Source: Candidatus Nomurabacteria bacterium RIFCSPHIGHO2_01_FULL_37_25
GTDB taxonomy: Bacteria; Patescibacteriota; Minisyncoccia; Phycocordibacterales; UBA9973
Assembly (NCBI GenBank): GCA_001786765.1
Contig: MFTH01000010.1
Location: forward strand, 34,105-98,104
Direction: 5' to 3'
Length of the DNA stretch: 64,000 bases
Shown here: positions 7,199 through 61,170 of the stretch, one piece after another
Layout of the letters: each line of letters starts with the position of its first letter
How positions within the stretch are numbered: the first letter of the stretch is position 1
Notes under the pieces: generated by a model
Database searches by the model: none
The model's input: the letters and a program-made list of their open reading frames with translations, nothing else
What the model was told of the DNA's origin: nothing
Position numbers and translations under genes: made by a program

Positions 7199-8716
7199 AT
7201 GCAAACACAAACAGAACAGCAAAAAATAGGCTATTTTATTAAAGAATTACGCGAACATCGCGGGATGACACAAAAGCAATTCGCCAAAATGTTAAACACT
7301 TCCCAAAGCTCAATTCCCCGAATGGAAAAAGGTGAGCAGAATTTCACGACAGAATTACTTTTAAAAATAAGCAATGTTTTAGACCACCAGATAGTTTCTA
7401 TAAATGATTCTATTGATTTCAAAGTTAATGGAGGAAAAAAATTAAATGGAACTATTAAAACAAATTTTTCAAAAAACGGTTCTGTCGGACTTTTGTGCGC
7501 TTCTCTTCTAAATAGTGGCAAAACGACACTCCATGGTATTGCCCGGATTGAAGAAGTTTATAGAGTAATTGAAATTCTAGAGAGTATCGGAGTGACAGTC
7601 AAATGGATTAATCAAAACACTTTGACAGTCATACCTCCAAAGAAATTTAATTTAGAAAATATTAATATTGACTCAGCAATAAAAACACGTTCAGTTGTTA
7701 TGCTAATAGGACCACTCATTCATAAGTTGTCTTCTTTTTCTCTTCCACATCCCCATGGTTGCAATCTAGGCAAACGCACAATTGCGGCGCATATATTTGC
7801 ATTAGAAAAACTTGGGGTAAAAATAAAAACTACCGCAAAAAATTATGAGATAACTAAAGGGAAACTCAAAAGAGGAGAAATAGTGATGTATGAATCCGGA
7901 GACACTGCTTGTGAAAACGTTTTGACAGCTTCTGCCCTTATTCCGGGTACTACAAAAATAAATTTCACCAGCGCAAACTACATGGTGCAAGAAGTATGTT
8001 TTTTTCTTGAGGTGTTAGGAGTAAAAATTGACGGAATTGGCGCCTCGAGTTTAACTGTTCATGGAATAGCTCATATAAATAAAGATGTTGAATATTGGAA
8101 CAGTGAAGACCCGATCGAATCCATGATGTTCATTTCCGCCGCAATCGGGACTGATTCACATATAACCATCACCCGCGCTCCTATAGATTTTTTGTCTCTA
8201 GAAATAGAAAAATTAAAGAGAATGAATTTGAAATATAAAATTTCAAAAATTTATCATTCTTATAATGGTCGTACTAAACTCGCTGATATAGAAATCTTTC
8301 CAAGTAAATTAAAAGCCTTAAATGACAAGCTTCATTCCAACCCTTACCCGGGAATAAATATAGACAACCTGCCATTTTTTGTGCCGATTGCCATAAAGGC
8401 CAAAGGTCAAACGATGATTCACGATTGGGTTTATGAAAATAGAGCAATATATCTGACAGAATTAAATCGTTTAGGCGCTGATATCACTCTGGCTGACCCT
8501 CATCGTCTATATATAAATGGCGGAACACCACTGAAAGGAGCTCAGGTCGTCTGTCCCCCAGCTTTGCGTCCATCAATGGTGATTCTTATTTCAATGCTAG
8601 GAGCTAGCGGAACTTCAATCCTGCGAAATGTTTATATGATAAATCGTGGTTATGAAGAAATTGCAGAGAGGCTGAATTCTATCGGCGCAGATATTAAAAT
8701 AATTAAAGGGAATTAA
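7199..8716 (+). CDS. murA: UDP-N-acetylglucosamine 1-carboxyvinyltransferase with N-terminal XRE-type HTH domain fused
   Basis: N-terminal HTH_3 (GMTQKQFAKMLNTSQSSIPRMEKG), then full MurA (active-site Cys in HPHGCNLGKR, C-terminal RGYEEIAERLNSIGADIKIIKG). Confidence 0.8.
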   Translation: MQTQTEQQKIGYFIKELREHRGMTQKQFAKMLNTSQSSIPRMEKGEQNFTTELLLKISNVLDHQIVSINDSIDFKVNGGKKLNGTIKTNFSKNGSVGLLCASLLNSGKTTLHGIARIEEVYRVIEILESIGVTVKWINQNTLTVIPPKKFNLENINIDSAIKTRSVVMLIGPLIHKLSSFSLPHPHGCNLGKRTIAAHIFALEKLGVKIKTTAKNYEITKGKLKRGEIVMYESGDTACENVLTASALIPGTTKINFTSANYMVQEVCFFLEVLGVKIDGIGASSLTVHGIAHINKDVEYWNSEDPIESMMFISAAIGTDSHITITRAPIDFLSLEIEKLKRMNLKYKISKIYHSYNGRTKLADIEIFPSKLKALNDKLHSNPYPGINIDNLPFFVPIAIKAKGQTMIHDWVYENRAIYLTELNRLGADITLADPHRLYINGGTPLKGAQVVCPPALRPSMVILISMLGASGTSILRNVYMINRGYEEIAERLNSIGADIKIIKGN

Positions 8717-9645
8717 TGCACCTTTTGAAAAATAACTTTTTGCGGGGTTTCGAGCCGGGCGGGGCGAGAATTATAGTTATCTTGGGCCAAACTGCCACAG
8801 GGAAAAGTGACTTGGCGGTAAAAATTGCCAAAAAAATAGGCGGAGAAATAATTTCAGCTGATTCAAGACAAGTTTATAAAGGACTCGATATTGGCACTGG
8901 TAAAATTACAGAAAAAGAAATGCAGACCATACCGCATTATCTGCTGGATGTTGCAAATCCCAAAAAACAATTTACTGTAGCGCAATATAAAATCCTGGCA
9001 GATAAAAAGATAAAAGAAGTAATTGATAGAGATAAAATACCGATACTTTGCGGTGGTACAGGATTTTATATTGATGCGGTAACAAAAGGTATGATTTTTC
9101 CAAAAGTTCCACCAAATAAAAAATTAAGAAAAGACTTGGAACAAAAAACAGCTGAGACTCTTTTTAATATCCTGAAAAAATTAGATAAAGATAGGGCAAA
9201 AAGTATAGATTCTAAAAACAAAGTCCGGTTGATAAGAGCAATTGAGATAGCTAAAGCTTTAGGTGAAGTCCCTAAAATTACGGAGGCAACGCCTCCGTAT
9301 AAATTTATAAAAATAGGGTTAAAAGTTCCAGAGAAAACTCTAAAAAGAAAAATAAGAATCAGACTACGCAAGCGCATACGAAGTGGTATGGCGATAGAGC
9401 TTTACAATCTTCGTAAAGCTGGAGTGCCGTGGAAAAGATTCATTGAATTAGGTTTCGATCAAAAGTATATTGCATTATTTTTGCAAGGGAAAATATCTAA
9501 TAAAGAAATGCTAGAAAAACTTTTTAAAAGTAATTGGCAATACGCAAAACGCCAGATGACTTGGTTCAAACGCGACAAAGAAATTAAATGGTTCTCCCCT
9601 GTTTCTTACAAAAAAATAAAAATCTATATAGAAAATAAACTTTAA
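8716..9645 (+). CDS. miaA: tRNA dimethylallyltransferase
   Basis: P-loop GQTATGKS, ADSRQVYKGLDIGTGK, HYLLDV motifs. Confidence 0.9.
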   Translation: MHLLKNNFLRGFEPGGARIIVILGQTATGKSDLAVKIAKKIGGEIISADSRQVYKGLDIGTGKITEKEMQTIPHYLLDVANPKKQFTVAQYKILADKKIKEVIDRDKIPILCGGTGFYIDAVTKGMIFPKVPPNKKLRKDLEQKTAETLFNILKKLDKDRAKSIDSKNKVRLIRAIEIAKALGEVPKITEATPPYKFIKIGLKVPEKTLKRKIRIRLRKRIRSGMAIELYNLRKAGVPWKRFIELGFDQKYIALFLQGKISNKEMLEKLFKSNWQYAKRQMTWFKRDKEIKWFSPVSYKKIKIYIENKL

Positions 9646-19970: not shown

Positions 19971-20025
19971 TACTACGAAACATAAATTGAGATAACTTCT
20001 TAAGATTTCCGCATATGCAGAAATC

Positions 20026-20817
20026 TCACGAAACAATCACCGTAAACTCCCCTTTTTGTTTAACAGGGTTTTGAATTAAGTAATCTAAAATTTCTTTCGG
20101 CGTACCGGTTTTCAATTCTTCATAAATTTTTGTCAGTTCACGGGCGATACAGACTTTTTTATTGGGGCAAAATTTAGTGAGTGATTCTAAAGTTTTTAAA
20201 ATTCGATGTGGAGATTCGTAAAATACCATTGTTCTTTTTGATTCGGCAATTTCCTTAAATAAAGTTTCTCTGCCTTTTTTATGCGGTAAAAATCCTAAAA
20301 AAGTAAATTCGTGTGTCGGCAATCCAGAAGCAGAAAGCGCAGTGATAACAGCACTTGGTCCTGGTATAGGAATCACATCTACGACTATGTTAACATTCTC
20401 TGCGATAGCAGAGTTTGTTAAAAAGTTAAATTTTTCTCTAAACCCTTTAGAAGAAGGGTGAAGCGATTCAGCTTTGTTGAATTTAGCTTTTATCTCTGAG
20501 ACAAGCATAGCGCCAGGGTCTGATATCGTGGGAGTGCCAGCGTCAGAAACCAATGCCAAATTTTTCCCCCCTTCCAATAACTCAAAAATCTTTGCTAATT
20601 TACTGTTTTGTCTAGAGTTTTTCCCGGCAACATCGTCAGACGGATAGCTCATCGTTGGCGTATTAATATTGTATTTTTCTAAAATTTTTTTCGTCTGTCG
20701 CGTATCCTCACACAATATCAGATCAACACTTTTTAGTGTTTCAATCGCTCGGAGTGTGATATCCTGCAAATTCCCTATCGGCGTGGCAATAACATAAAAT
20801 TTAGACATTTTGATCAA
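20026..20817 (-). CDS. rsmI: 16S rRNA 2'-O-methyltransferase RsmI (tetrapyrrole-methylase family)
   Basis: YVIATPIGNLQDITLRAIETLKSVDLILCEDTR N-terminus. Confidence 0.85.
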   Translation of the reverse strand: MIKMSKFYVIATPIGNLQDITLRAIETLKSVDLILCEDTRQTKKILEKYNINTPTMSYPSDDVAGKNSRQNSKLAKIFELLEGGKNLALVSDAGTPTISDPGAMLVSEIKAKFNKAESLHPSSKGFREKFNFLTNSAIAENVNIVVDVIPIPGPSAVITALSASGLPTHEFTFLGFLPHKKGRETLFKEIAESKRTMVFYESPHRILKTLESLTKFCPNKKVCIARELTKIYEELKTGTPKEILDYLIQNPVKQKGEFTVIVS

Positions 20818-21379: not shown

Positions 21380-21871
21380 TTATCTCCTATATTTTCTAGC
21401 GCGCCATTTATCAGCGATTTTTACACGAGTAAGTGATCGCTCGAGTTCCGCTTCAAAATGTTCAAAATCTACATGTTCTTTATTCTGCATAGCCACCTTC
21501 ATCTCTTCTGCTCGAGTTTTTGCTTTTTCTATTTTCTCGTCTGAAATTTCAAATACATGTTCTGCAAAATCAGCCAAAATAGCCACTTCTGTCACATAAT
21601 CTAAACTTTTCCCCGACGCTTCTGGTCGGGGTTCCGACCCTTCTAGGCATCGGGATTTTATTTCCACAAAACCACCAGAAACTGCCATTGGTATATTCTC
21701 GCCTTTTGAGATTCCCACCACATCTCCCGAAGCAAGACCCACAATAAGAGGTATGTGCCCCGGCAAAACAGAGATTTCACCCTCCGTAGTGGGTATAACA
21801 ACTTCATCCACCATCTCTTCTAACACAAGACGTTCTGGGGTAACTATTTTTAATTTTAATTGTTTTGCCAT
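21380..21871 (-). CDS. atpC: ATP synthase F1 epsilon subunit (probable start MAKQLKLKIV; ORF track extends to 21949); carries a 17-aa in-frame insertion encoded by a GC-rich double hairpin
   Basis: Epsilon beta-sandwich and C-terminal helices; inserted SRCLEGSEPRPEASGKS segment encoded by 21611-21655. Confidence 0.85.
   Translation of the reverse strand: MAKQLKLKIVTPERLVLEEMVDEVVIPTTEGEISVLPGHIPLIVGLASGDVVGISKGENIPMAVSGGFVEIKSRCLEGSEPRPEASGKSLDYVTEVAILADFAEHVFEISDEKIEKAKTRAEEMKVAMQNKEHVDFEHFEAELERSLTRVKIADKWRARKYRR
21611..21655. repeat. GC-rich double-hairpin palindromic element (family P2), in-frame inside atpC
   Basis: CCCCGACgcttctgGTCGGGG plus a second CCGAC..TCGGG hairpin; ~60% GC in an AT-rich gene; copies at 47574-47618 and 36083-36122. 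Confidence 0.7.
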
Positions 21872-21997
21872 ATGTTTTTTGAAAATAAAATAGTTCTTTA
21901 GAAAAGCCTTGCGCAGGCTGTCGAGCCGAGCAGTTCGCTGGCGTAGCAACGCCAGATAGATTGCTTTTATAAAGAATCTATTTTATTTTCAAAGAAA

Positions 21998-23377
<1,380 letters not shown>

Positions 23378-34524: not shown

Positions 34525-35676
34525 TTATTTTTCGGCGCCACTAAACAAGCTAACATATTCATCATAAATATATGATTGACCATATTTCTTATCTTTATCT
34601 TTTGGAGTAAGAATCCCTATTTTTATAAATCTATCAATAACAGTCTGTGCTCCTGCGCGAGTAAACCCTGTCCATTTTTGAACGACAGTATTGTTTACGA
34701 TCGGTTGTCCGTAAAGTTTAGGTAAAACTTTAATGGCGCTTTCTGATGCTCGCTTACCCAATGTCTGTACTTTTCCCATATCCTGTTGGCGTAGCATGGT
34801 GATTTTGCCAACAATATCAATCGCCTCATTAGCAATCTCAATAACTCCATCAAGAAAAAAATCCACCCAATCAGACACAACCCCATGATGATAACCAAAA
34901 AGCTTCTCGTAATAGAGTTGCTGATGTTTCTTGAAGTAAGATGATAAGAAAAGTACCGGCTTCTCAAGAAATTTTTCTTTCCATAAATAGAAAGTGATGA
35001 GCATGCGACCCGTCCTGCCATTTCCATCAAGAAAAGGGTGGATTGTCTCAAATTGCGCGTGCAAAAGACCCGCCTTGATAACGGTCAAGGTCCCATCTTC
35101 ATCGTGCATATAATTCTCAAGATCGGTAAGCGCTTTATGCATCGCATCTACCGGAGGCGGTACAAATCGCGCGTTGTCGGGCCGAGTTCCTCCAATCCAG
35201 TTTTGAGTTTTACGAAACTCGCCAGGATCAGAAAAGTGAGTAGCTCTGGCTTTGTGCATCAATTTTTCGTGAAGTTCTCGGATGAACCGCAGAGTTAAGG
35301 GAAAGTCATCCGCCACTATGCGCTTCATTCCATAATTTAAAGCCTTAATGTAATGCAAAATATCATCAACATCTTCAGGAATGTTTGTATTGATTTTGAC
35401 TTCCGCCTCAATGGCATCAATCATCGTCGCCATAGTGCCCTCGATTTGGCTTGACGAGGCGGCGTCTTTGCGTAAGTACATAAGCAAGAAAAAATCAGCG
35501 TCAGGCAAAAGCTTGGTGATGCCATCTAATTTGCCAAGGAGCCGTGTTGCTTCGTTGTTTTTCTTAAGAATTTTTGAATCAAAATCAAAATTCTCTTTTG
35601 GCGGAAAAGGATTAGGAATAAAGGCTTTAAATCCTTCTTTTTGCTCTTTATTTATGCCAATTTGTATTGATTTCAT
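34525..35676 (-). CDS. Fic-family protein (AMPylator-type)
   Basis: HPFLDGNGRTGRMLITFYLW Fic motif, Fic_N region, C-terminal wHTH. Confidence 0.85.
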   Translation of the reverse strand: MKSIQIGINKEQKEGFKAFIPNPFPPKENFDFDSKILKKNNEATRLLGKLDGITKLLPDADFFLLMYLRKDAASSSQIEGTMATMIDAIEAEVKINTNIPEDVDDILHYIKALNYGMKRIVADDFPLTLRFIRELHEKLMHKARATHFSDPGEFRKTQNWIGGTRPDNARFVPPPVDAMHKALTDLENYMHDEDGTLTVIKAGLLHAQFETIHPFLDGNGRTGRMLITFYLWKEKFLEKPVLFLSSYFKKHQQLYYEKLFGYHHGVVSDWVDFFLDGVIEIANEAIDIVGKITMLRQQDMGKVQTLGKRASESAIKVLPKLYGQPIVNNTVVQKWTGFTRAGAQTVIDRFIKIGILTPKDKDKKYGQSYIYDEYVSLFSGAEK

Positions 35677-35712
35677 AAGGTTTGTTTCTATCTTTTTTAT
35701 AATGTATACAAC

Positions 35713-35860
35713 TTTGAATTACGAAACTCGTCGAAGGCATGTCTTTTTTAGGGGGTTTCGAGGCTGTCGAGCCGAGAACTTCAGGATTTTTTAAGCTTAA
35801 AAAAATCCGTACCCTAGAAAAAGACATGCCTAGAAAGAGTTTTGTAATTCATGATATACA
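35713..35860. mobile_element. MITE-like element copy 1 (~148 bp, 17-bp TIRs TTTGAATTACGAAACT / AGTTT[TC]GTAATTC[AA])
   Basis: TIRs flank a core with GGCTGTCGAGCCGAG and the perfect palindrome GGATTTTTTAAGCTTAAAAAAATCC. Confidence 0.75.
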
Positions 35861-35979
35861 AAGTATAGCAGTTTGTATCTTTTTGGTCAAGAGATGTATA
35901 CAAACCTACGATTCCCCACTAAACGCCTTATTCATCGTGAATTACCTCATTTTTCACTCGTTCCCTCTGAAGTTTCGAT

Positions 35980-36054
35980 TGGTGAGCGTGGATGGAATCG
36001 GACCATCGGCCTCTGTCTTATCAGGACAGCGTTCTACCACTGAACTACACGCTC
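35980..36054 (-). tRNA. tRNA-Ile(GAT) with atypical T-loop (TCCGATT), CCA encoded
   Basis: Reverse complement GAGCGTGTAGTTCAGTGGTAGAACGCTGTCCTGATAAGACAGAGGCCGATGGTCCGATTCCATCCACGCTCACCA; canonical cloverleaf but C at the usually invariant U55. Confidence 0.65.
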
Positions 36055-36122: not shown

Positions 36123-36147
36123 CTACACGCTCAAAACTTGTGAATTA

Positions 36148-36300
36148 CGAAACTCGTCGAAGGCATGTCTTTTTTAGGGGGTTTCGAGGCTGTCGAGCCG
36201 AGAACTTCAGGATTTTTCAACCTGCCTGCCGGCAGGCAGGGCTTCGAAAAATCCGTATCCTAGAAAAAGACATGCCTAGAAAGAGTTTCGTAATTCAAAG
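36148..36300. mobile_element. MITE-like element copy 2 with nested CCTGCCTGCCGGCAGGCAGGG palindrome replacing the central AAGCTT hairpin
   Basis: Same TIRs and core as copy 1; 36221-36241 carries the P1 palindrome. Confidence 0.75.
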
Positions 36301-36335
36301 TCAAAACATAAACAAATATAACATAAACAAAACAA

Positions 36336-36365
36336 AAAACCACCCAAGGTGGTTTTTTGTTTAAT
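36336..36365. terminator. Bidirectional rho-independent terminator (AACCACCCAAGGTGGTT flanked by A and T runs)
   Basis: Perfect hairpin with poly-T on both strands, downstream of the RRM gene. Confidence 0.7.
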
Positions 36366-46536: not shown

Positions 46537-46570
46537 GTCTAAGATTTCCGCATATGCGGAAATCTTAGAC
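46537..46570. repeat. 34-bp perfect palindrome GTCTAAGATTTCCGCATATGCGGAAATCTTAGAC (family P3) between convergent genes
   Basis: Perfect dyad; related copies at 20003-20026 and 52081-52106 with half-site 51429-51447. Confidence 0.8.
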
Positions 46571-49354: not shown

Positions 49355-50050
49355 TTAATCCATCCAATTTTTGACTTTTAATGCCATTTCAGCGGCTTTT
49401 TGTTCCGCTTCCTGTTTTGATTTACCACGACCTTCAGCTATCAAATTAGACCCAAAAAAAATACCGACTGTAAAATGTTTATCATGGTCTGGACCTGATT
49501 CACTGAGAACTCTGTACGCTGGCGTAAGGTTTATAAATTCCTGCGCTTTTTCCTGCACTAGAGATTTTGCATCACGCCAAAGTTTCTTTGCCACTATTTC
49601 TTCTGTTTTAGGTAAAAGAGATTCGCGTACAAATTTATCTACTGCCTTTATTCCTTGATCCAGATATAAAGCCCCGATATACGCTTCATATGTATTTGCT
49701 AAAATATATTGCCTTGCTTTGCCATTGTCCTTTTTCTCACCCTTGGATAAAAGCAGATAATCATTCATGCCCATAACTGTCGCAACCTCAGAAATAATGA
49801 CAGCGTTGACCAAAGCTGAACGCAAAGCGGTCAATTCCCCTTCTGTGCAATTTGGATATTTTTTGTAAAGAAAATCAGTTACGATAAGTTCCAGCACAGC
49901 ATCACCCAAGAATTCTAAACGCTCATTGTGTGACAGCTTGGTTGATGCATTCTCATTTATGTAAGAACGATGTATAAAAGCCTGCTCTAACAAACTCTTA
50001 TTTTTAAAAATTATCTTAGTTTTTTTCTCAAAATTTGAAAACTGAATCAT
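49355..50050 (-). CDS. rnc: Ribonuclease III
   Basis: ERLEFLGDAVLEL signature plus dsRBD. Confidence 0.92.
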   Translation of the reverse strand: MIQFSNFEKKTKIIFKNKSLLEQAFIHRSYINENASTKLSHNERLEFLGDAVLELIVTDFLYKKYPNCTEGELTALRSALVNAVIISEVATVMGMNDYLLLSKGEKKDNGKARQYILANTYEAYIGALYLDQGIKAVDKFVRESLLPKTEEIVAKKLWRDAKSLVQEKAQEFINLTPAYRVLSESGPDHDKHFTVGIFFGSNLIAEGRGKSKQEAEQKAAEMALKVKNWMD

Positions 50051-51319: not shown

Positions 51320-51459
51320 AATATTTATATCCTAACATATTAGAAGCGAAATGCAATTTTTTTTCAATTTTCTATAAGTTTATGATTGCCAGAAAGTAAA
51401 CGTCTTCTTATTTTTTCCCAACTTTTACGCATATGCTAGAATCTTATGAAAAAGATAAA

Positions 51460-52080
51460 TTAAAATAAATGAAAATTTTTCTTTAACTTTTCTTCTCTTA
51501 AGAAGTTTTCTACAGTCAAAACCTCCACATATTTCCCCACTCCAAAGAAATCAGCAATAAAGATTATTTCGTCTTCACAAGGATAAGGATAAATCCAAGC
51601 GGATTTTTGAAATTGGAAAAAATTTAATTCTTTCAAATGATACCGTAATGCTTCTCTACCTTTTGTAAATCTCATCGGAATATCAAACATAACTAATCTC
51701 CATTTGCTATCCCATCTTTTTGGCTTGTTAATCTTCATCAGCTCAATATCGAAAGCTCTGAGTCTCGTATTTCCTTTTTTAGTAATTTTTACTATAGTTT
51801 TTCCGTTCTTGTCAGCGACATATTCTATGAGTTTTTGACGTCTAATATTATCAATAGCGCTTTGTATTTGTTTTTTAGAATACTTTTTAGATCCTTCAAA
51901 CATCTTAAAACATTGCACTGCATTACCCATAACTCCTGCGCCCAACACCAGCATAGGCATTAAAGATACAGCCAACACACAAAGAGCAACTGTGGAAATT
52001 TTTGCTTCAGTTGTATCAGACTCTAAAAAATCTTTTAATCTCTTTGAATACCCTGCTTTATTATTTTTTCCCATATACAT
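51460..52080 (-). CDS. PaaX-family-like regulator (N-terminal TM segment, wHTH, PaaX_C-like W..W.L..FDIP...LR..L...F.....S.W..P) bracketed by inverted half-palindromes
   Basis: RWDSKWRLVMFDIPMRFTKGREALRYHLKELNFFQFQKSAWIYP matches the PaaX C-terminal pattern; IRs at 51429-51447 and 52081-52099. Confidence 0.45.
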   Translation of the reverse strand: MYMGKNNKAGYSKRLKDFLESDTTEAKISTVALCVLAVSLMPMLVLGAGVMGNAVQCFKMFEGSKKYSKKQIQSAIDNIRRQKLIEYVADKNGKTIVKITKKGNTRLRAFDIELMKINKPKRWDSKWRLVMFDIPMRFTKGREALRYHLKELNFFQFQKSAWIYPYPCEDEIIFIADFFGVGKYVEVLTVENFLREEKLKKNFHLF

Positions 52081-52107
52081 AAGATTCTAGCATATGCGGA
52101 AATCTTA

Positions 52108-52245
52108 GGTAAATAATGCCTCCTTTTTATAGCTCATATGGAGGGCAGGGGCTTGCGCCCCTGCCCTAGAGAGGAAGGGGAAAGTCGATTGAATGGGCTA
52201 GGGGGGTCAGCAACTATTGTTGCTGACCCCCCCCTCCCAAAATAT
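52108..52245 (+). other. GC-rich highly structured element upstream of thrS (two perfect long hairpins inside a GGAGGG/CCCTCC outer stem)
   Basis: GGGCAGGGGCttgcGCCCCTGCCC (10 bp) and GGGGGGTCAGCAACtattGTTGCTGACCCCCC (14 bp). Confidence 0.5.
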
Positions 52246-52264
52246 TATTAACAAAAAATAGATA

Positions 52265-54043
52265 ATGTGTGATATTATAAATAACATAAATTATATGAAC
52301 GAAAATAATAAACTGCAAAATTTAAGACATACTTTAGCCCACTTACTCGCCGCATCTATAAGGGCAATTTATAAAGATTCTCAAAATGCCATTGGTCCGG
52401 CCATAGACGATGGCTTTTATCAGGATTTTGAGTTGGTTGAACCAATTTCCGAAAATGATTTACCAAAAATAGAGAAAAAAATGCGAGAGCTTTTGAAAAA
52501 GTGGAACGCTTTTGAAAAACGAGAAGTAACCCCGCAAGAAGCAAAAAAAGAGTTTGCTTGGAATAAATACAAAGTTGAATTAATTGAAGAATTTGCAAAA
52601 GACGGGAAAAATCTGACTTTCTACACTTGTGGTGATTTTATAGATTTGTGCAAAGGAGGACATTTAGAAAATCCTAGTAAAGAACTTCCGTTTGACGCTT
52701 TCAAACTAGACCGTGTGGCCGGAGCTTACTGGCGTGGAGATGAAAAGAATAAAATGCTTACGCGTATTTATGGTTTAGCCTTTGAAACCAAAGAAGAATT
52801 AGACGCATACATAATGCAAAGAATAGAAGCAGAGAAAAGAGACCACAGAGAGTTGGGCAAAAAATTAGAATTATTCACTTTTGATGAAGAGGTCGGGAAG
52901 GGTCTGCCTATTTGGTTGCCAAAGGGAAATATAATTAAAGAAGAATTAGAAAATTGGGCAAAAGAGACAGAAAAAAAATGGAATTACCAAAGAGTCACGA
53001 CCCCAATAATCACAAAAGAAAATTTGTTTTACACCTCTGGGCATTTGCCTTTATACAAAGAAAGCATGTATGCGCCTATATCTATCGAAGAAGAAAATTA
53101 CTATATAAAACCGATGAATTGTCCTTTTCATCATAAAGTATTTTCTGCCCTTCCCAGAAGTTATAAAGATTTGCCTCTTCGTCTGGCAGAATACGGATGG
53201 TGTCATAGATATGAAGATTCTGGAAGTCTTTTTGGGCTGATGAGAGTGCGTGGAATGCAAATGAATGATGCTCACATATATACAACACAAGAGCAAGCGA
53301 TAAATGAATTTGTGGATGTAATAAGATTGCACGAATATTATTACAAAGTGCTTGATATAGATAAATATGAGATGGAATTGGCTTTGCGAGATCCAAAAAA
53401 AATAGATAAATATCATGGCGAAGAAAAAGATTGGAAAATGGCAGAAGAAATGACAATAAAAGCTATGGAACTCTCAGGAGTGCCGTTTAAGATAGTCCAT
53501 GAAGGAGCCGCCTTTTACGGACCAAAAATGGATTTCCAAATATATTCTTCTATCGGCAGATCTTTCACTGCTTCAACAAATCAATTAGATTTATACATGG
53601 GTAAAAGATTCAAGTTAGAATATACAGACAAAGATGGGTCTAGAAAAACACCATTTATAATACACCGAGCTCCGCTTGGAACCCACGAAAGATTTATTGG
53701 ATTTTTAATAGAACACTTTGGCGGCGCCTTCCCTCTTTGGCTTTCGCCTGTACAGGTCAAGGTCATACCCGTGCGGGAAAATCATAATGAATACGCGAGA
53801 AAAATTTTTGAATCATTAAGAGAAAATAATATCCGCGTAGAACTTGACGAAGGAGACCAAAACCTAGGCACGAAAGTTCGTGACGCTAAAAATAACAAGC
53901 TACCCTACTGGATAGTCGTCGGTGATAAAGAAATTGAAGCGAATAAAATAACTTTAGAATCACGCGATTCCGGTCAGCTTGGGCAAATGAGTCGCGAAGA
54001 ACTCATAAAAAAACTTTTGGAAGAAATAAAGAATAAAAAATAA
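52265..54043 (+). CDS. thrS: Threonyl-tRNA synthetase lacking the N-terminal TGS domain
   Basis: Editing/SAD HxxxH (HTLAHLL), class II motifs, anticodon-binding domain. Confidence 0.9.
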   Translation: MCDIINNINYMNENNKLQNLRHTLAHLLAASIRAIYKDSQNAIGPAIDDGFYQDFELVEPISENDLPKIEKKMRELLKKWNAFEKREVTPQEAKKEFAWNKYKVELIEEFAKDGKNLTFYTCGDFIDLCKGGHLENPSKELPFDAFKLDRVAGAYWRGDEKNKMLTRIYGLAFETKEELDAYIMQRIEAEKRDHRELGKKLELFTFDEEVGKGLPIWLPKGNIIKEELENWAKETEKKWNYQRVTTPIITKENLFYTSGHLPLYKESMYAPISIEEENYYIKPMNCPFHHKVFSALPRSYKDLPLRLAEYGWCHRYEDSGSLFGLMRVRGMQMNDAHIYTTQEQAINEFVDVIRLHEYYYKVLDIDKYEMELALRDPKKIDKYHGEEKDWKMAEEMTIKAMELSGVPFKIVHEGAAFYGPKMDFQIYSSIGRSFTASTNQLDLYMGKRFKLEYTDKDGSRKTPFIIHRAPLGTHERFIGFLIEHFGGAFPLWLSPVQVKVIPVRENHNEYARKIFESLRENNIRVELDEGDQNLGTKVRDAKNNKLPYWIVVGDKEIEANKITLESRDSGQLGQMSREELIKKLLEEIKNKK

Positions 54044-54047
54044 CCTA

Positions 54048-54190
54048 GTTTGAATTACGAAACTCTTACTTGGCATATCTTTTTCTAGGGTACAGATTTT
54101 TTGAAGCTTAAAAAATCTTGAAGTTTGCTCGCCGTCGCTCGCAAAACCCCCTAAAAAAGACATGCCTGCGACAAGTTTCGTAATTCAAAG
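54048..54190. mobile_element. MITE-like element copy 3 (opposite orientation, ~85% identity to copy 1), followed by a degenerate partial copy at ~54205-54275
   Basis: Same 17-bp TIRs TTTGAATTACGAAACT...AGTTTCGTAATTCAAAG and AAGCTT-centred internal hairpin. Confidence 0.75.
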
Positions 54191-54337
54191 TTAATTAGTA
54201 TAAATTCCAAAAAAACTCGTCGCAGGTGTAGTTTTTGGTAGACATTGCGCAGGCTGACGAGCCGAGCATAGCAAATTTTCAGCAGAAAATTATGCGTGTC
54301 TAACAAAAATTATACCGAGAAAGAGTTTTTTTGGAAT

Positions 54338-55249
54338 TTACAAACTTAAAGCCATTTTTGATTTCCAAAAAAAGAAAGCAATTATGAACATTGTCATAAG
54401 CGGAGATAAATATTCTGGAATATGAAAATCAAAACTATGCAATATCATAATAATACCTAGCACCAATATAGAATACATCGCGCCATTTTTTAAATAAACA
54501 TATTTTTTAATTCGTTCTATATTGCTGATGGTGACCTGTCGCACCAATAACGCGCCAAAACCATTTCCAATTAAAATCAAAGGCACAGAGAGAGTAAAAG
54601 CAAAAGCGCCGAGCACTCCGTCAATAGAAAAAGTGGTATCAATTATTTCTAAAAAGAAAAGTTTGCTCAAATCCGAATGCGCGCTACCAAGCAATTTCCT
54701 TTCCTGTTCTTCGGCATTTTGTTTGAAACCATGAGTAATAAAAAATAAACTTGAGCCGACGACAGCTCCAAAGCCCATTATGTTACTCTCTTTGAGCGCA
54801 AACCAAGAAATAATTGCAAGTAAAACAGAAACTACAGCATAAAACCAAACTCCTTTTGACATGAAAAATTTCTCTGTCCTCGGTAAACCAAGCTTTTTAT
54901 CTTCTAGAAACAGCCAATGTAAAAATAAAAACAAAAGAAAAACTCCGCCAGCGACGAGCAAAATTGGCGCGGATTTTTCTATGGATTCCAGAACCACAGG
55001 GTCAGAAGACCAAGCCGCTGAAAAAATCTGCATTGGGCTAAGACTTGTGTTAAAAGCCCAAATTATAGCAAAAGGTAAAAGCCCACGAACTAAAAATACC
55101 GCAATAAACATTCCCCAAGTTAGAAACCACCTCCGAGCGCGAGAGCCCATGGTGGAGAGCACCTCGGCATTTATAATAGCATTATCCACAGACGAAACTG
55201 CTTCAAAAAGCGAGAGACCAATGATAGTAATAAGGGCGGAAAATAGCAT
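54338..55249 (-). CDS. TerC/DUF475-family integral membrane protein
   Basis: SVDNAIINA motif, ~8 TM helices. Confidence 0.65.
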   Translation of the reverse strand: MLFSALITIIGLSLFEAVSSVDNAIINAEVLSTMGSRARRWFLTWGMFIAVFLVRGLLPFAIIWAFNTSLSPMQIFSAAWSSDPVVLESIEKSAPILLVAGGVFLLFLFLHWLFLEDKKLGLPRTEKFFMSKGVWFYAVVSVLLAIISWFALKESNIMGFGAVVGSSLFFITHGFKQNAEEQERKLLGSAHSDLSKLFFLEIIDTTFSIDGVLGAFAFTLSVPLILIGNGFGALLVRQVTISNIERIKKYVYLKNGAMYSILVLGIIMILHSFDFHIPEYLSPLMTMFIIAFFFWKSKMALSL

Positions 55250-55709: not shown

Positions 55710-55747
55710 ACTTGTATATTATAACAACAAATAAGCGGCAAAAATAC

Positions 55748-55952
55748 TTGACTTTTTCATTTTATTGTGCTATACTATAAGGGTAATAAGGTCTTTGAAA
55801 ATATAATATGTTTCGAGTTATTCTTGAGTGGTTCGCCCATCAAGTAGCTAAAGAAATTTAGCTCTTTGCTCGGCGAACGACTCGAAAAATAAATCCATTC
55901 CGACGAAAGTCGGAATACAACATGCGTCTATGAGGCGCAAAGGGAGAAGGAA
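55748..55952 (+). promoter_or_regulatory. Promoter (TTGACT-17-TATACT) plus ~170-nt structured leader, copy 1
   Basis: Near-identical promoter and colinear leader at 57351-57556, with compensatory stem changes. Confidence 0.65.
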
Positions 55953-56672
55953 ATGGAAACCAAGAAAAGACGGCGGAATCCCTGGGGCCCAGTTTTAAAA
56001 AATCCAAAGGCAACACAGGACACTGCAGTTGGGACTGCAGTTCCACCGCCACAGAAGAAACAAAAGATGGTGGAATGGCTGGTGGGGGGGATATTTATTT
56101 TTCTGGTCCTGGTATGCGGATTCTACTTTGAGTTCGCGTACCGAGTCCTGGCTGTAGTTGGGCTCGGGATCACCATGGCTGTACTCATGGTACAGTCTAT
56201 CTTCTCCGAGAAAGAGGTGAGTTTTTGGACCACCTTGGGAAAGGTTGTTGGAAACAACAACTGGATTTACTGGTGGATCTTCTTGTCTGGGATGGCTTGT
56301 CTCCTGATAGGATTTTTCTCAAACAACATTCCGAGAAAAATCTATACGGTGCTTGTCATAATAGACAATCCTGTAAGTCCCGGTAATTGGAGTAAGGCCG
56401 CAGAGAGTCTTACTCTAGAGGACCCTTTTAAAAACAACGACGACAACCCCTTCCTCGCAACAAACGAAGGAACTCAAGGCAGTTCCCTCTTCGCAGGAGA
56501 GGAGGCGAAATGGGGTTTCGCCGGTCTTCAATTCCTCTTGCTGGCTCTGCCAGCAAGGTTCGTCTCTTACTGGGACGAAATGAAGAGGAAGGCGAAAAAA
56601 AAGGAGAAGGGCCAGAGCTGGATTAGCTGGTTCTTCAGCCACGTCCTCTTTGAATTAATCTGGCCTGGGTAG
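55953..56672 (+). CDS. Hypothetical polytopic membrane protein (GC-rich island)
   Basis: GC-rich ORF with SD AAGGGAGAAGGAA before the ATG; several TM helices. Confidence 0.5.
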   Translation: METKKRRRNPWGPVLKNPKATQDTAVGTAVPPPQKKQKMVEWLVGGIFIFLVLVCGFYFEFAYRVLAVVGLGITMAVLMVQSIFSEKEVSFWTTLGKVVGNNNWIYWWIFLSGMACLLIGFFSNNIPRKIYTVLVIIDNPVSPGNWSKAAESLTLEDPFKNNDDNPFLATNEGTQGSSLFAGEEAKWGFAGLQFLLLALPARFVSYWDEMKRKAKKKEKGQSWISWFFSHVLFELIWPG

Positions 56673-57298: not shown

Positions 57299-57350
57299 AT
57301 TTTAATATTATAAAATAAGGATAAAATAGCTTTTTTGTCAAGATTAAACC

Positions 57351-57556
57351 TTGACTTTTTCATTTTATTGTGCTATACTATAAAGGTAATCAGGTCTTTG
57401 AAAATATAATATGTTCTGAGTCATTCTTGAGCAGTTTGCCTATCAAGTAGCTAAAGAGATTTGGCTCTTTGCTTGGCAAACGAGCTCAAGGAATGGAAAC
57501 TTCTCTGGTGAAAGCCAGAGTACAAATGCGTCATCTTGACGCGAAAGGAGTCCACA
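57351..57556 (+). promoter_or_regulatory. Promoter (TTGACT-17-TATACT) plus ~170-nt structured leader, copy 2
   Basis: See copy 1; the ORF-track ORF 57469-57702 lies inside the leader and is probably not coding. Confidence 0.65.
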
Positions 57557-58654
57557 ATGTGGACATTGATTATTTTATTAGCGGCCAGTTACTGGGCATC
57601 CACTGGGATACCCGGGTGGCCGTTGTCAACATGGCAGACGTCCCTGGTGGCGGGAGCCCTATATGGGCTCTATCGACTGGCGTGCTGGATGCAGTGGATT
57701 GATGGTGGCCATCATACCACCACACCAGTTAGCACCGCCGCCGGACACAGTGGAGGAAGTGGTGGTATGTGGGGAGGGATACCAAAGCTAGGACTTTGGT
57801 ACGTTCTCACAACCGCCCTAATGATGATAGGTACATACATAGTCAACGTGCAAAACGTTGACATGTTTATGTATTTCATAACATTAGGGGGACGGTCGTG
57901 GATTTATCCTTTATCCACAACGGATGCTATCCTCTGGACGTCTACCCTGGCTCTCATGTCAGCGGTCGCCTGGCTAGCAGTGGAGGGGAGATGGCGACCG
58001 GCTGGATGGATATTCGGGATAACCTTTATAACTCTCCTTGTTTTTAGGGAGTTCGGTCCGTTCTTCGAGGCGATCCGGCCGATCCCGAGCTCCGGTCCTG
58101 TCACGCCGGGCATCGGCGAAAGTCAAGAGAGGGCGGACCTGAACGCCGCCCTAGTCAAGCGAGGAGCGCTCCCCGTAGCGGGGGAGGTGGTGGCCAAGTT
58201 TGGGTTCGGGGAGGTAGACCCAAAGGAAGGTTTCCTCCTCGGCCTGGTTTCCCGAGGGTGGGTGTGGTGGATGGGCGCACCCACCTACGACCCCAAGAAG
58301 GGGGCAGTCCTGGGGAGATTGTATCAGTTTTGGGAATGGGCGGCTGGAGAAAGCCCACTCCCATCTCGCGCGCCGGCGGTAGTGTTTTCCCCCACCCCTG
58401 CGCCGGCGGGACCGCTGAGAAGCTGTTCCGTCCCCTGCGAGATGTGGGTGGATTGGGAGGAGGACATCAAAACGGGTGGGCGAGACGTTTTGGTCCTCTT
58501 CCACGGAAAGGAGGAATGGTTCCGCCTTTCCGGAGGGAATGAAAAGGATATCCCCAGGGAGGTTTTCTCCCCCGGCAAGGCAAAGTTTGCTTTGCCGGAC
58601 GACGGCGACGACGCGTCGCCCATAATGGTAAAAATTTTCGCGGCGAAAAAATAA
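57557..58654 (+). CDS. Hypothetical polytopic membrane protein with Pro/Gly-rich C-terminal region (GC-rich island)
   Basis: ATG at 57557 preceded by AAAGGAG; ~8 TM helices; ORF-track start 57536 is a TTG upstream. Confidence 0.5.
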   Translation: MWTLIILLAASYWASTGIPGWPLSTWQTSLVAGALYGLYRLACWMQWIDGGHHTTTPVSTAAGHSGGSGGMWGGIPKLGLWYVLTTALMMIGTYIVNVQNVDMFMYFITLGGRSWIYPLSTTDAILWTSTLALMSAVAWLAVEGRWRPAGWIFGITFITLLVFREFGPFFEAIRPIPSSGPVTPGIGESQERADLNAALVKRGALPVAGEVVAKFGFGEVDPKEGFLLGLVSRGWVWWMGAPTYDPKKGAVLGRLYQFWEWAAGESPLPSRAPAVVFSPTPAPAGPLRSCSVPCEMWVDWEEDIKTGGRDVLVLFHGKEEWFRLSGGNEKDIPREVFSPGKAKFALPDDGDDASPIMVKIFAAKK

Positions 58655-58783: not shown

Positions 58784-59107
58784 TTATGGATAATCAGGTA
58801 AATCTACTATCCCTTGTTCAGGATCTATCCCTTCTATGTTTGGGAAGGTGCTCAATATAACTCCAAGAATAGTCCAGACACCCATCATGATAGTCAATCC
58901 GACAACACCCCAAAGCATATGGCTCTTCCCGGTTGTCTTTTTCTCGTCATTACTCTGATTGTTAATGAATTGAAACATACCGAAAAGAAAATACGCCAAC
59001 GCTAAAGCGAAGAGCAACAGAATAAGCGGGTTTATAATTTCTCTATTAACATTCGCTATAAAACTATTCACGCTCGCATAAGCTATCTTTGTTTCAAATA
59101 AATCCAT
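58784..59107 (-). CDS. TrbC/VirB2-like pilin-family small membrane protein (paralog 1, no signal peptide)
   Basis: Two TM helices separated by a short charged loop; shares its core with the four downstream paralogs. Confidence 0.5.
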   Translation of the reverse strand: MDLFETKIAYASVNSFIANVNREIINPLILLLFALALAYFLFGMFQFINNQSNDEKKTTGKSHMLWGVVGLTIMMGVWTILGVILSTFPNIEGIDPEQGIVDLPDYP

Positions 59108-59118
59108 TGATTCTAAAA

Positions 59119-59511
59119 CTAGAAAGGAGTGGTTGGAAAAGTGATAGTTTGAGGATTTGTATCAATTCCAAAAGTGTTTGTTAGAATCTTTACGAGTCCC
59201 CATACGGTAACAATAACAGCCAAGCCAATTATGCCAAATATTATTCTGTCTCGTCCTTTCTTTTTTGCTTCTGCATCATCTCCAATAACATAAGAAATTA
59301 CTCCCCATACAAAGTAAATGACCCCTAAGATAATTATAATAGGAACAATTTGAGTAAAAAGTTGAGCTATCTTACATAAGATAGCTTCAATTGTGCCTGT
59401 ACCCACACTAGCACAATTAGTAGAAGTACCCCCCGTCGTCACCTGCGCCAATGCCATAACAGGCGCTAGACCTAAAACAAAACCCGACAAAACAATTAAT
59501 TTCTTTTTCAT
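59119..59511 (-). CDS. TrbC/VirB2-like pilin-family protein (paralog 2, with signal peptide)
   Basis: Signal peptide, then IIILGVIYFVWGVISYVIGDDAEAKKKGRDRIIFGIIGLAVIVTVWGLV core. Confidence 0.55.
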   Translation of the reverse strand: MKKKLIVLSGFVLGLAPVMALAQVTTGGTSTNCASVGTGTIEAILCKIAQLFTQIVPIIIILGVIYFVWGVISYVIGDDAEAKKKGRDRIIFGIIGLAVIVTVWGLVKILTNTFGIDTNPQTITFPTTPF

Positions 59512-59622
59512 CCCGTTTAGAAATTATGATATCCGTACATTACCTTTAGGTATATAAAGAAACACAATTCTTACTTTTATAATTTCTCCCGTTTTCTAAA
59601 TTTCTAACGGGATTCAAAACGA
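59512..59622 (-). promoter_or_regulatory. 5' leader inverted repeat (CCCGTTAGAAATT...AATTTCTAAACGGG-ATG) of pilin paralog 2
   Basis: 13/14-bp arms enclosing ~80 nt; 3' arm abuts the ATG. Confidence 0.45.
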
Positions 59623-59726
59623 CTTTGATAATAATTAATAATACTTAATAAAGAACTACCATGCTATTGTACCACAAACAGTATCAAAAAAGAAAGCAAG
59701 CCCCGTCTGAATAAAGACGCTGAAAG

Positions 59727-60302
59727 TTATGGGGGTGGTGTCTTAACTTGTGGAATAAAACTAGTGTTAATCCCAAAGGTAGTACCTAGTATTTCAACCA
59801 ACCCCCAAACGGAAACCATCACCGTCAAAGCAATCAACCCCCAAAGCATAAATTGCTTGCCTTTTTGCTTTTTCGCCTCTTCGTCGCTTTTGATAACATA
59901 CTGCACCACACCCCAGACAAACATCACCATCGCTAAAGCGAAAATAAGAGGAATGATAGCGTTGTTAATAATGGTGGTGATATAACACACAAGGTCTTGA
60001 AATCTCGGATAGGGACCAAGAGTTTGGCAAGTGTCTATGGGCTCAAAGACGGGCCCAGTTGCATTTGTAAGCCCGAAAGTTTCAGCAATAATGCTTACAA
60101 GTCCCCATACAGACACAATAACAGTCAAGCCAATGATGCCATATATTATTCTATCTCTCCCTTTCTTTTTTGCTTCATCACCGCCCCCTATAACATACTG
60201 CACCACGCCCCAGACAAAATAGACCACTCCTAAAGCAACCAAAACAGGAATGATTGAACTAAGAATATTATACGCCTCAAATATTAAATCCTCTATGGTC
60301 AT
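59727..60302 (-). CDS. Tandem-duplicated TrbC/VirB2-like pilin-family protein (two complete core modules in one ORF)
   Basis: Two copies of ...LGVVYFVWGVVQYVIGGGDEAKKKGRDRIIYGIIGLTVIVSVWGLV... / ...LAMVMFVWGVVQYVIKSDEEAKKQKGKQFMLWGLIALTVMVSVWGLV... Confidence 0.55.
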   Translation of the reverse strand: MTIEDLIFEAYNILSSIIPVLVALGVVYFVWGVVQYVIGGGDEAKKKGRDRIIYGIIGLTVIVSVWGLVSIIAETFGLTNATGPVFEPIDTCQTLGPYPRFQDLVCYITTIINNAIIPLIFALAMVMFVWGVVQYVIKSDEEAKKQKGKQFMLWGLIALTVMVSVWGLVEILGTTFGINTSFIPQVKTPPP

Positions 60303-60320
60303 GATTTTAATTCTTAAATT

Positions 60321-60731
60321 TTACGGTCCAAGCTCGGTAACGGTAGCTGATATGAGTTCTGCGATAGCCCACGACCCTAAGAGTATCGCCGCGCCGATCA
60401 AAGTATATAAGAGAGCGTTTTTAGCTTTAGTTAATTTTTCTGAATTGCCCATCGCTGATACAAAAAGAAAACCGCAATAAATGACAGCCAGAGCGACAAT
60501 GGGAATGCCTATTTTTAGCACACCTTCTAAAAGAACCTTGATAAATTCCTGAATGGTATTTGTGCTTATTGGGTTGCAAATTTTATCTTTACAAAGGTCA
60601 GAAGGAGTAGTACCCTGAATAGGTTCAGGAGAAGTAGTCTCTGCAAAAGAAAGAGCTGGCGCCGTAATCAAAAAAGCCATTAAAATTATTCGAAATAAAT
60701 TTTTAGTCAGATTTTTCTTAAAAAAATTCAT
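60321..60731 (-). CDS. TrbC/VirB2-like pilin-family protein (paralog 4; likely start MNFFKKNL)
   Basis: Signal peptide, core IPIVALAVIYCGFLFVSAMGNSEKLTKAKNALLYTLIGAAILLGSWAIAELI. Confidence 0.5.
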   Translation of the reverse strand: MNFFKKNLTKNLFRIILMAFLITAPALSFAETTSPEPIQGTTPSDLCKDKICNPISTNTIQEFIKVLLEGVLKIGIPIVALAVIYCGFLFVSAMGNSEKLTKAKNALLYTLIGAAILLGSWAIAELISATVTELGP

Positions 60732-60759
60732 ATTTAGATTACTTATATTATACATCATT

Positions 60760-61170
60760 TCAAAAAAATCTATCAATATCCTTATAACCTAAAATTGATA
60801 GTAAGGTTTTAACAATAAGCCAAGCGGCGGCGGCAAGGACAAGCCCGATAACGGCATTAGTAAAAATATTCTTTGCTTTTCCCCTAGCTTCTGTACTACC
60901 GCCAGAAGTTACGAGTTTAAAACCAGCGTAAAAGAACATTATGGCGGCGATAGGTATAGCCATATAGAAAAGAATAAAATCAATAATATTGTTTATAAGC
61001 TTCATAAAAGCGGTGAAATTGCATGGCTCCGCAATTGTTCCACTATCATCTGGAGTATTATTGCAAGGAACCAACCCTTTTAATGGATCAAAAGCGGCAA
61101 AAGAAATAACAGGCGCCACAAGCATTAAAAACACAGCGAGGGAAATAAAAAATTTTGTTGTTTTTGTCAT
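60760..61170 (-). CDS. TrbC/VirB2-like pilin-family protein (paralog 5)
   Basis: Signal peptide, core IPIAAIMFFYAGFKLVTSGGSTEARGKAKNIFTNAVIGLVLAAAAWLIV. Confidence 0.5.
   Translation of the reverse strand: MTKTTKFFISLAVFLMLVAPVISFAAFDPLKGLVPCNNTPDDSGTIAEPCNFTAFMKLINNIIDFILFYMAIPIAAIMFFYAGFKLVTSGGSTEARGKAKNIFTNAVIGLVLAAAAWLIVKTLLSILGYKDIDRFF

Follow-up and report, generated by a model that had tools for sequence, protein, structure and literature searches.

The 294-nt spacer between thrS and terC probably contains two complete, adjacent and opposite-facing members of one superfamily of palindromic, non-autonomous MITEs that is specific for Patescibacteria of the Paceibacteria/Parcubacteria type. 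The elements represent a kind of bacterial MITE that is already known, the Correia/ERIC/bcr1 type being the closest; the family itself appears to be undescribed and is spread through Patescibacteria. Five copies, termed here copies 1 to 5, are found in the window (the whole stretch of 64,000 nt that was analyzed), which amounts to about one per 13 kb over its 64 kb. They are devoid of coding capacity, are intergenic and fill the spacers between genes.

Organization of the thrS-terC spacer and of the other copies in the window

The spacer is preceded by thrS (52265-54043, forward strand) and followed by terC, a DUF475/TerC gene defined with Pfam (54338-55249, reverse strand). Over 98% of its length, the ThrS of the window has 100% identity to the protein of Candidatus Nomurabacteria bacterium RIFCSPHIGHO2_01_FULL_37_25, and contigs encoding an identical ThrS have a spacer of the same length. 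Copy 3 (54048-54190, canonical strand reverse) belongs to the GAATTAC subfamily of MITEs, is 143 bp long and has a type A core. A 10-nt stretch (54191-54200), which opens with the 7-mer TTAATTA flanking copy 3 on its right-hand side, separates it from copy 4 (54201-54340, forward strand), a complete hairpin element of 140 nt with a type B core (the core types are defined in the next section). The two adjacent elements lie in opposite orientation between convergent genes and the terC stop codon (54338-54340) is formed by the last 3 nt of copy 4.

Copy 3 has the features attributed to it in the preliminary description of this DNA, namely its boundaries at 54048-54190, an identity of about 85% to the reverse complement of copy 1 and an AAGCTT-centred hairpin. 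The arms 54051-54192 and 35710-35851 are 85% complementary over 142 nt, the unit coordinates are identical and the hairpin is seen in the sequence. The 16-mer TTTGAATTACGAAACT is found exactly at both ends of copy 3 (54049 on the forward strand and 54174-54189 on the reverse strand) and also in copies 1 and 2. The fold of copy 3 has an energy of -59.6 kcal/mol (z = -9.6) and its score against a covariance model of the core (see next section) is 31.2 bits (54080-54157, minus strand). Its hairpin B is of the short type, GC-GACG-GC. The 7-mers on either side of the element, TAACCTA and TTAATTA, agree at 4 of 7 positions and form a worn target duplication.

Two other segments had been interpreted as leftovers of the same family, one at 54205-54275 as a degenerate remnant and one at 21905-21960, in the atpD-atpC spacer, as a core fragment. 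That they share a core is correct: the motif GCAGGCTGWCGAGCCGAGCA is exact at 54249-54268 and at 21913-21932, has 3 mismatches at 35759 and 36185, and has no match in any of 100 shuffled sequences. They are not leftovers, however. The first is the 5' half of the intact hairpin 54201-54340 (copy 4), whose arms 54201-54244 and 54297-54340 are 82% complementary over 44 nt, whose fold reaches -62.4 kcal/mol (z = -10.5) and whose core scores 92.7 bits at 54232-54309. The internal-loop module of copy 4 is GUCGCA/GAGAAA, the sequence AAATTCCAAAAAAAC at its terminus is a divergent form of GAATTACGAAAC and a close relative is found at locus L139 (6561-6639). The second segment is the centre of an intact hairpin of 116 nt, copy 5 (21878-21993, forward strand, type C core; -48 kcal/mol, z = -8.2; 77.1 bits at 21896-21974). 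It fills the 126-nt spacer between atpD (21998-23359, reverse strand, stop codon at 21998) and atpC (21380-21871, reverse strand, start codon at 21871), both identified with Pfam, antisense to the atp genes, and its left arm stops 6 nt from the atpC start codon.

The "ongoing decay" proposed from these two segments does not fit elements that are intact, possess terminal stems of their own and show good conservation throughout the Patescibacteria. Copies 4 and 5 outscore copies 1 to 3 (59.2, 26.4 and 31.2 bits, respectively) in a model built from copies of other genomes. They are members of two sister subfamilies, with a type B and a type C core, respectively. The window shows little sign of decay, namely the worn duplication (4/7) and the shortened hairpin B of copy 3, and a marginal half-match at 8735-8808. 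The latter, a sixth match (forward strand, 13.7 bits, E = 0.21), overlaps the 5' end of miaA (8716-9645, forward strand, Pfam) in the region of its first ~30 codons. Only its 5' half (8737-8770) resembles the type A core, with 79% identity to copy 1 over 34 nt, while its 3' part encodes the MiaA P-loop. This match may be an element relic taken into an N-terminal extension of MiaA or a chance match.

The remaining copies lie close to each other on the forward strand. Copy 1 (35712-35854) is a 143-bp MITE with a type A core, bordered by the 7-bp duplication TATACAA (35705-35711 and 35855-35861). Copy 2 (36138-36300) is an element of the same type with a 20-nt GC-rich mini-hairpin in the apex of its hairpin C, and is flanked by the 7-bp duplication TCAAAAC (36131-36137 and 36301-36307). 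A tRNA-Ile gene (35980-36054, reverse strand) is found between them, and copy 1 neighbours a Fic gene (34525-35676, Pfam). In the window (36218-36247) and at three other loci (L126, L042 and L059), GC-rich perfect mini-hairpins, e.g., CCTGCCTGCCGGCAGGCAGG, are inserted either in the apex of hairpin C or between it and hairpin B. These mini-hairpins within elements may be a second, smaller kind of insertion.

In relatives whose ThrS is 81-83% identical, 1-31 nt separate thrS from a different downstream gene and the spacer has no match to the model. Since these relatives have a short spacer, another next gene and no element, copies 3 and 4 occupy a synteny break that is specific for the source lineage. 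The gene order reveals a local rearrangement of the thrS region whose breakpoint lies at copies 3 and 4. Note that a PaaX_M gene is found upstream of thrS in the window and downstream of it in the relatives (51460-54340 in the window compared with L133-L138). Two copies of the palindrome AAGATTTCCGCATATGCGGAAATCTT bracket this PaaX_M-domain gene (51460-52080). The palindrome recurs at 20003-20026, 46540-46567, 51420-51445 and 52080-52105, and is probably an operator for the PaaX_M-domain regulator.

Anatomy of the elements and covariation of their core

Each element is an imperfect palindrome of 93-189 nt whose terminal inverted repeats form a long basal stem; in elements of the window, arms of 34-44 nt are 82-89% complementary. 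All five window copies fold alike, with a basal stem, an internal loop (copies 1 to 4), a second stem and a three-way junction. The internal-loop module, 5'-GUCGMA opposite 5'-DAGWAA, is present in copies 1 to 4 and in many copies of the family, and the three-way-junction core is conserved in every copy. Two hairpins, B and C, emerge from the junction. Hairpin B (UUKC-GA-GGCU-GWCG-AGCC-GA-GMA) has a stem broken by tandem G.A pairs and a GWCG loop on top. Hairpin C exists in three versions that define the core types: type A in copies 1, 2 and 3 (GGAUUUUUU-AAGCUUC-AAAAAAUCC), type B in copy 4 (AAAUUUUC-AGCA-GAAAAUU) and type C in copy 5 (CUGGCGU-AGCA-ACGCCAG, followed by AUAGAUUGC). Loop and junction bases are conserved as sequence, namely GWCG, the tandem G.A pairs and AGCA, as well as GUUCG and AUAGAUU in type C.

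The covariance model derives from 61 cores of types B and C. In this alignment the 7 core pairs of hairpin C are 100% paired, both sides being changed in 16-31 of the 61 sequences per pair, and four types of pair are seen at most positions; U-A replaces the closing pair G16-C36 in 15 sequences. The covariation score of hairpin C is 0.52 compared with 0.17 in column shuffles, 500 of which never gave so high a value, and with no more than 0.20 when partners were slid. The stem of hairpin B is invariant in the 61-sequence set only because the search pattern fixed its sequence. Copies that were found by other routes show compensating versions of this stem (GGCU/AGCC, GGCC/GGCC, GCGC/GCGC and, in copy 3, GC/GC). 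Pairwise counts of compensatory change among orthologous copies were too noisy to be used. The covarying core is a candidate new structured nucleic-acid motif.

The core is not bound to one type of ends. One terminal shell with its internal-loop module occurs with core types A, B and C (copies 1 to 3; L041, L082 and L139:6561; L143:1174). The converse situation, a terminal shell or a hairpin of this outer module that lacks a core, was sought and none was found, and the outer module was discarded as an independent element.

Known motifs were compared by eye with the core and rejected. A hammerhead or box C/D reading of CUGACGAG fails on an A that is W in the family and on unfit flanking helices; the CUGACGA of hairpin B is not a hammerhead core, its A being U in ~40% of the copies; a kink-turn would have a 3-nt bulge before the G.A pairs, which is missing. 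The Rfam search over the window, covering hammerhead, twister and other ribozymes, retrieved only tRNAs at gathering thresholds, and permissive scans of all three element regions returned only plant miRNA-precursor hairpins far below threshold.

The two strands of an element are not equivalent. In 99 of 106 elements the GGCUGWCGAGCC strand has a more stable fold than its complement, the mean difference being 6.4 kcal/mol, and it has 114 G.U pairs in outer stems compared with 44 on the complement (2.6 times), an asymmetry that is present in every gene context. Where the neighbours are co-directional, the better-folding strand runs antisense to both of them in 44 of 61 cases, and in 21 of 28 when the context is tight (p = 0.013), a rule that copies 3, 4 and 5 all fit; GC skew is confounded with the coding strand in these counts, in which biases related to replication and to transcription are inseparable. 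The ends are likewise uncoupled from the asymmetric interior: relative to the latter, 6 loci have the terminal tetranucleotides CTTT..ACGA and 9 have the reverse-complement arrangement, TCGT..AAAG. Both classes contain the same internal variants, therefore the interior has flipped repeatedly relative to the ends, which would most simply be accounted for by an exchange of the arms with each other. A better-folding strand, its antisense bias, the flipping of the interior, the exchange of cores among shells and the recurrence of adjacent pairs in inverted orientation are not predicted by a passive MITE model.

Distribution in Patescibacteria and mobility

A 23-mer that includes the closing helix is found at more than 111 loci of species-representative genomes. 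Among the matches listed almost all are from Patescibacteria, with hosts labelled as Nomurabacteria, Paceibacterota, Zambryskibacteria, Minisyncoccia, Parcubacteria and Saccharibacteria-labelled assembled genomes, and one weak match is in a genome of Amoebophilaceae. About 105 of the 111 genome matches listed fold to hairpins of 93-189 nt with the common layout. The covariance model gives 125 matches in 737 kb of fetched loci; its significant matches in the window are exactly copies 1 to 5, with the miaA segment as the single marginal one. Scanning of viral contigs with the 23-mer gave no match, and matches of a bare 17-mer in such contigs, confined to GC-rich coding DNA, were discarded as chance. 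In the literature searched there is no description of a MITE, REP or hairpin RNA of this kind in Patescibacteria, and the phylum is absent from a survey of prokaryotic MITEs published in 2024; as far as this literature goes, the element family appears to be undescribed.

The term MITE, used in the preliminary description, is appropriate for the type of copies 1 to 3, which combines terminal inverted repeats, 7-bp duplications, many near-identical copies and the absence of coding capacity. One metagenome scan, queried with the terminus of copies 1 to 3 and covering related metagenome bins, yielded 22 loci, of which ~20 are distinct. One bin alone accounts for at least 8 copies; the loci are unrelated and the copies nearly identical to each other. 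A 7-bp direct repeat is found exactly 4 nt outside GAATTAC...GTAATTC, perfect (7/7) in 11 of 21 distinct loci including copies 1 and 2, and direct repeats of at least 7 bp are present in 25 of 40 strand views compared with 2% in controls. The position of this duplication defines the mobile unit as one of 143 bp. Elements of the copy 1 to 3 type thus move as a 143-bp unit and duplicate 7 bp of the target. A duplication of this length implies a transposase that acts in trans and makes cuts with a 7-nt stagger, and the conserved core with its maintained pairing would reflect recognition of one strand by the mobilizing enzyme or by another protein.

The sister types of copies 4 and 5 may have spread in the same way. 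Clear duplications are found only in the GAATTAC subfamily and are decayed at copy 3 and absent, decayed or indistinct at copies 4 and 5; in the broad set, direct repeats of at least 7 bp (14 observed, 8.3 expected) are not above chance. Spread into operon spacers, as had been suggested, is seen in ~10 independent orthologous gene pairs, whose spacer either holds an element or is empty with a length of -1 to 18 nt. The atpD-atpC spacer hosts a type C element in antisense orientation in the window and a type B element in sense orientation at L023. At L040/L096/L122 and L057/L061/L088, too, one spacer is occupied by elements whose core type or orientation differs from genome to genome. Two other origins of the palindromes were considered. 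Insertion into pre-existing terminator hairpins was rejected, the empty orthologous sites having -1 to 18 nt and no palindrome. Outgrowth of a palindrome by copying of its flanks, proposed from overlaps between arms and gene ends (L091 compared with L060 and L026), was set aside, deletion at microhomologies explaining them equally well.

The outermost stems differ greatly between genomes, and many seemingly unique stems are diverged versions of the subfamily consensus ends. Such divergence would be unusual if a transposase read the terminal sequence. No pair of ends enclosing a gene, as expected for an autonomous partner or its transposase, was found in the fetched loci. At L146/L147 (L147: 3763-3830) a truncated copy, in which the left end and the internal-loop module are followed by only the beginning of the core, lies immediately upstream of a gene judged Fic-like by eye.

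Some arrangements of copies recur. Inverted adjacent pairs such as copies 3 and 4 are also found at L099, L049, L074, L112 and L121. One contig (L148, compared with L139 and L158) connects the left-hand flank of a MITE insertion with the right-hand flank of a different one, a junction that results either from recombination between copies or from an assembly chimera across the repeat. A type B element with diverged stems is found at the same site of two genomes, between the genes for tRNA-Lys and tRNA-Leu (L056: 2728-2828; L066: 895-1011). A general association with tRNA genes was not retained: the only cases are copies 1 and 2 in the window and, among the 60 loci scanned, L056/L066.

Known systems, alternative readings and possible role in operons

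The ends of Correia elements come in two variants that are found in all combinations, which resembles the CTTT and TCGT ends of the present elements. The Correia/NEMIS elements of Neisseria are alike in being non-coding palindromes of ~100-155 bp with long terminal inverted repeats and a duplicated target, in which the central part is conserved and internal segments give rise to size variants. They differ in duplicating TA instead of 7 bp, in carrying an IHF site in place of a three-way junction with covarying helices and in belonging to another host phylum; no sequence relationship was detected. They lie near genes and are co-transcribed with them, giving long RNA hairpins that are proposed targets of RNase III (PMC2229807, PMC2649163). 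ERIC/IRU of enterobacteria is an imperfect palindrome of ~127 bp from transcribed intergenic regions, with variants caused by internal insertions and an orientation-dependent effect on mRNA stability (PMC2229807). The palindromic structure, the location in transcribed intergenic DNA and the internal-insertion variants are shared with the present family, whereas the TA termini and the short 7-bp terminal repeats of ERIC are not, and no sequence similarity was detected. TA targets or termini of the Correia/ERIC type are absent here, the duplication being 7 bp of varied AT-rich sequence.

The bcr1-type repeats of the Bacillus cereus group are MITE-like, ~155 bp long, and have a target duplication and a predicted stable RNA structure, for which compensatory changes are reported. 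They are distinct in sequence, in their TTTAT duplication and in a host range that is narrow, whereas the present family is class-wide. The stems of TIGR arrays are organized in tandem beside a Tas gene with a Nop domain, carry box C/D motifs and are found in phages and parasitic bacteria (PMC12045711). They were rejected as a counterpart: the present elements are dispersed singly or in pairs and are not arrayed.

The elements abut start and stop codons and must consequently be co-transcribed within operons. In the transcripts they would form hairpins with folding energies of about -50 to -65 kcal/mol and 20-40 bp in their stems, which by analogy would be substrates of RNase III and could alter the processing or stability of the mRNA. 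The window codes for a putative enzyme of this type (49355-50050, located by its correspondence with L001). An effect on mRNA processing or stability is plausible, the RNA-level effects of Correia and ERIC elements providing a precedent (PMC2229807). Promoter scans of both scanned regions gave no excess over shuffled sequences, and the only strong promoter- or terminator-like sites lie outside the elements.

A further step would be to regard the three-way-junction core as a functional single-strand module of which the MITE shell is only the vehicle, an idea that we consider possible if doubtful. The core might then be the recognition site of an undescribed structure-specific mobilization system or, alternatively, a domesticated RNA or DNA element serving, e.g., transcript processing in streamlined genomes.

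It is unlikely that the elements are mainly a structured RNA or single-stranded DNA module that benefits the host, such as an mRNA processing or stability element, a protein-binding site or an antisense RNA, for which mobility would be only a means of distribution or a matter of history. The class-wide conservation of loop and junction nucleotides, the strong covariation of hairpin C, the maintenance of one core in different terminal shells, the strand-specific folding with its G.U excess on one strand and the location in a housekeeping operon (atpD-atpC) and in a tRNA operon (L056, L066) all argue for such a module. However, presence and absence vary at orthologous sites of close relatives, so no site needs its element. 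The better-folding strand is, moreover, usually not the mRNA strand, no Rfam family is matched and no conserved promoter or terminator is found inside the elements, while covariation could also result from selection for mobility or from template switching at palindromes.

Mobilization of the elements as single-stranded DNA hairpins of the REP/REPIN or IS200/IS605 type by an HUH (Y1/RAYT) transposase is highly improbable. The RAYT-mobilized REP, BIME and REPIN sequences do offer parallels, being extragenic palindromes that are often paired in inverted orientation, lie inside operons and are recognized through their structure. A function that seems to depend on the hairpin, the strand-asymmetric folding, the orientation bias and the inverted adjacent pairs (copies 3/4 and the five loci listed above) would all be accommodated. 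REPs are nonetheless GC-rich, 20-40 nt long and without duplication, whereas the present elements are AT-rich, reach 93-189 nt, i.e., 3-5 times the length of REPs, and show a clear 7-bp target duplication in the best-sampled subfamily. To our knowledge, HUH single-strand transposition makes no target duplication. In addition, the better-folding strand would be the template strand of co-directional genes, the opposite of targeting to the lagging-strand template, and an unsystematic look revealed no Y1 gene.

It is scarcely credible that the elements are intrinsic terminators of the ordinary sort, or GC-rich stretches of low complexity that have no relation to each other: the placement of copies 3 and 4 between convergent genes and the many basal stems with an A-rich 5' side and a T-rich 3' side would suit terminators, but none was predicted in the region of copies 3 and 4 (53900-54500), the canonical bidirectional terminator adjoining copy 2 (36330-36362) looks quite unlike the elements, and many copies lie inside operons or between divergent genes. 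The low-complexity origin, raised in the preliminary description as the case against relatedness, is refuted by the absence of GCAGGCTGWCGAGCCGAGCA from shuffled sequences, by a distribution that is Patescibacteria-specific among the matches listed, by the covariation and by the covariance-model matches.

Patescibacteria have tiny, gene-dense genomes that are thought to be poor in repetitive and mobile DNA. If the MITE superfamily is general among them, it would provide a handle for strain typing and help to explain breaks of assembly and rearrangements in metagenome-assembled genomes, such as the thrS synteny break and the flank-joining contig L148. It would also point to a transposase acting on the family and, by analogy, be likely to modify the expression of operons by means of long hairpins in their RNA.

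The window contains other repeats as well. Five tandem paralogues of T4SS_pilin (PF18895) at 58784-61170 (minus strand) are the source of the direct repeats D1 and D2, and the stretch at 56-60 kb has a raised GC content (0.47 compared with ~0.35). Two 134-nt copies (55747-55880 and 57350-57483) that are 90% identical, with differences that are compensatory, each contain a leader hairpin downstream of a near-consensus promoter (TTGACT, 17 nt, TATACT), and precede the ORFs 55953-56672 and 57536-58654, respectively. Neither ORF has a Pfam match and the leaders have no Rfam match; the 134-nt repeat may be an undescribed cis-regulatory leader.
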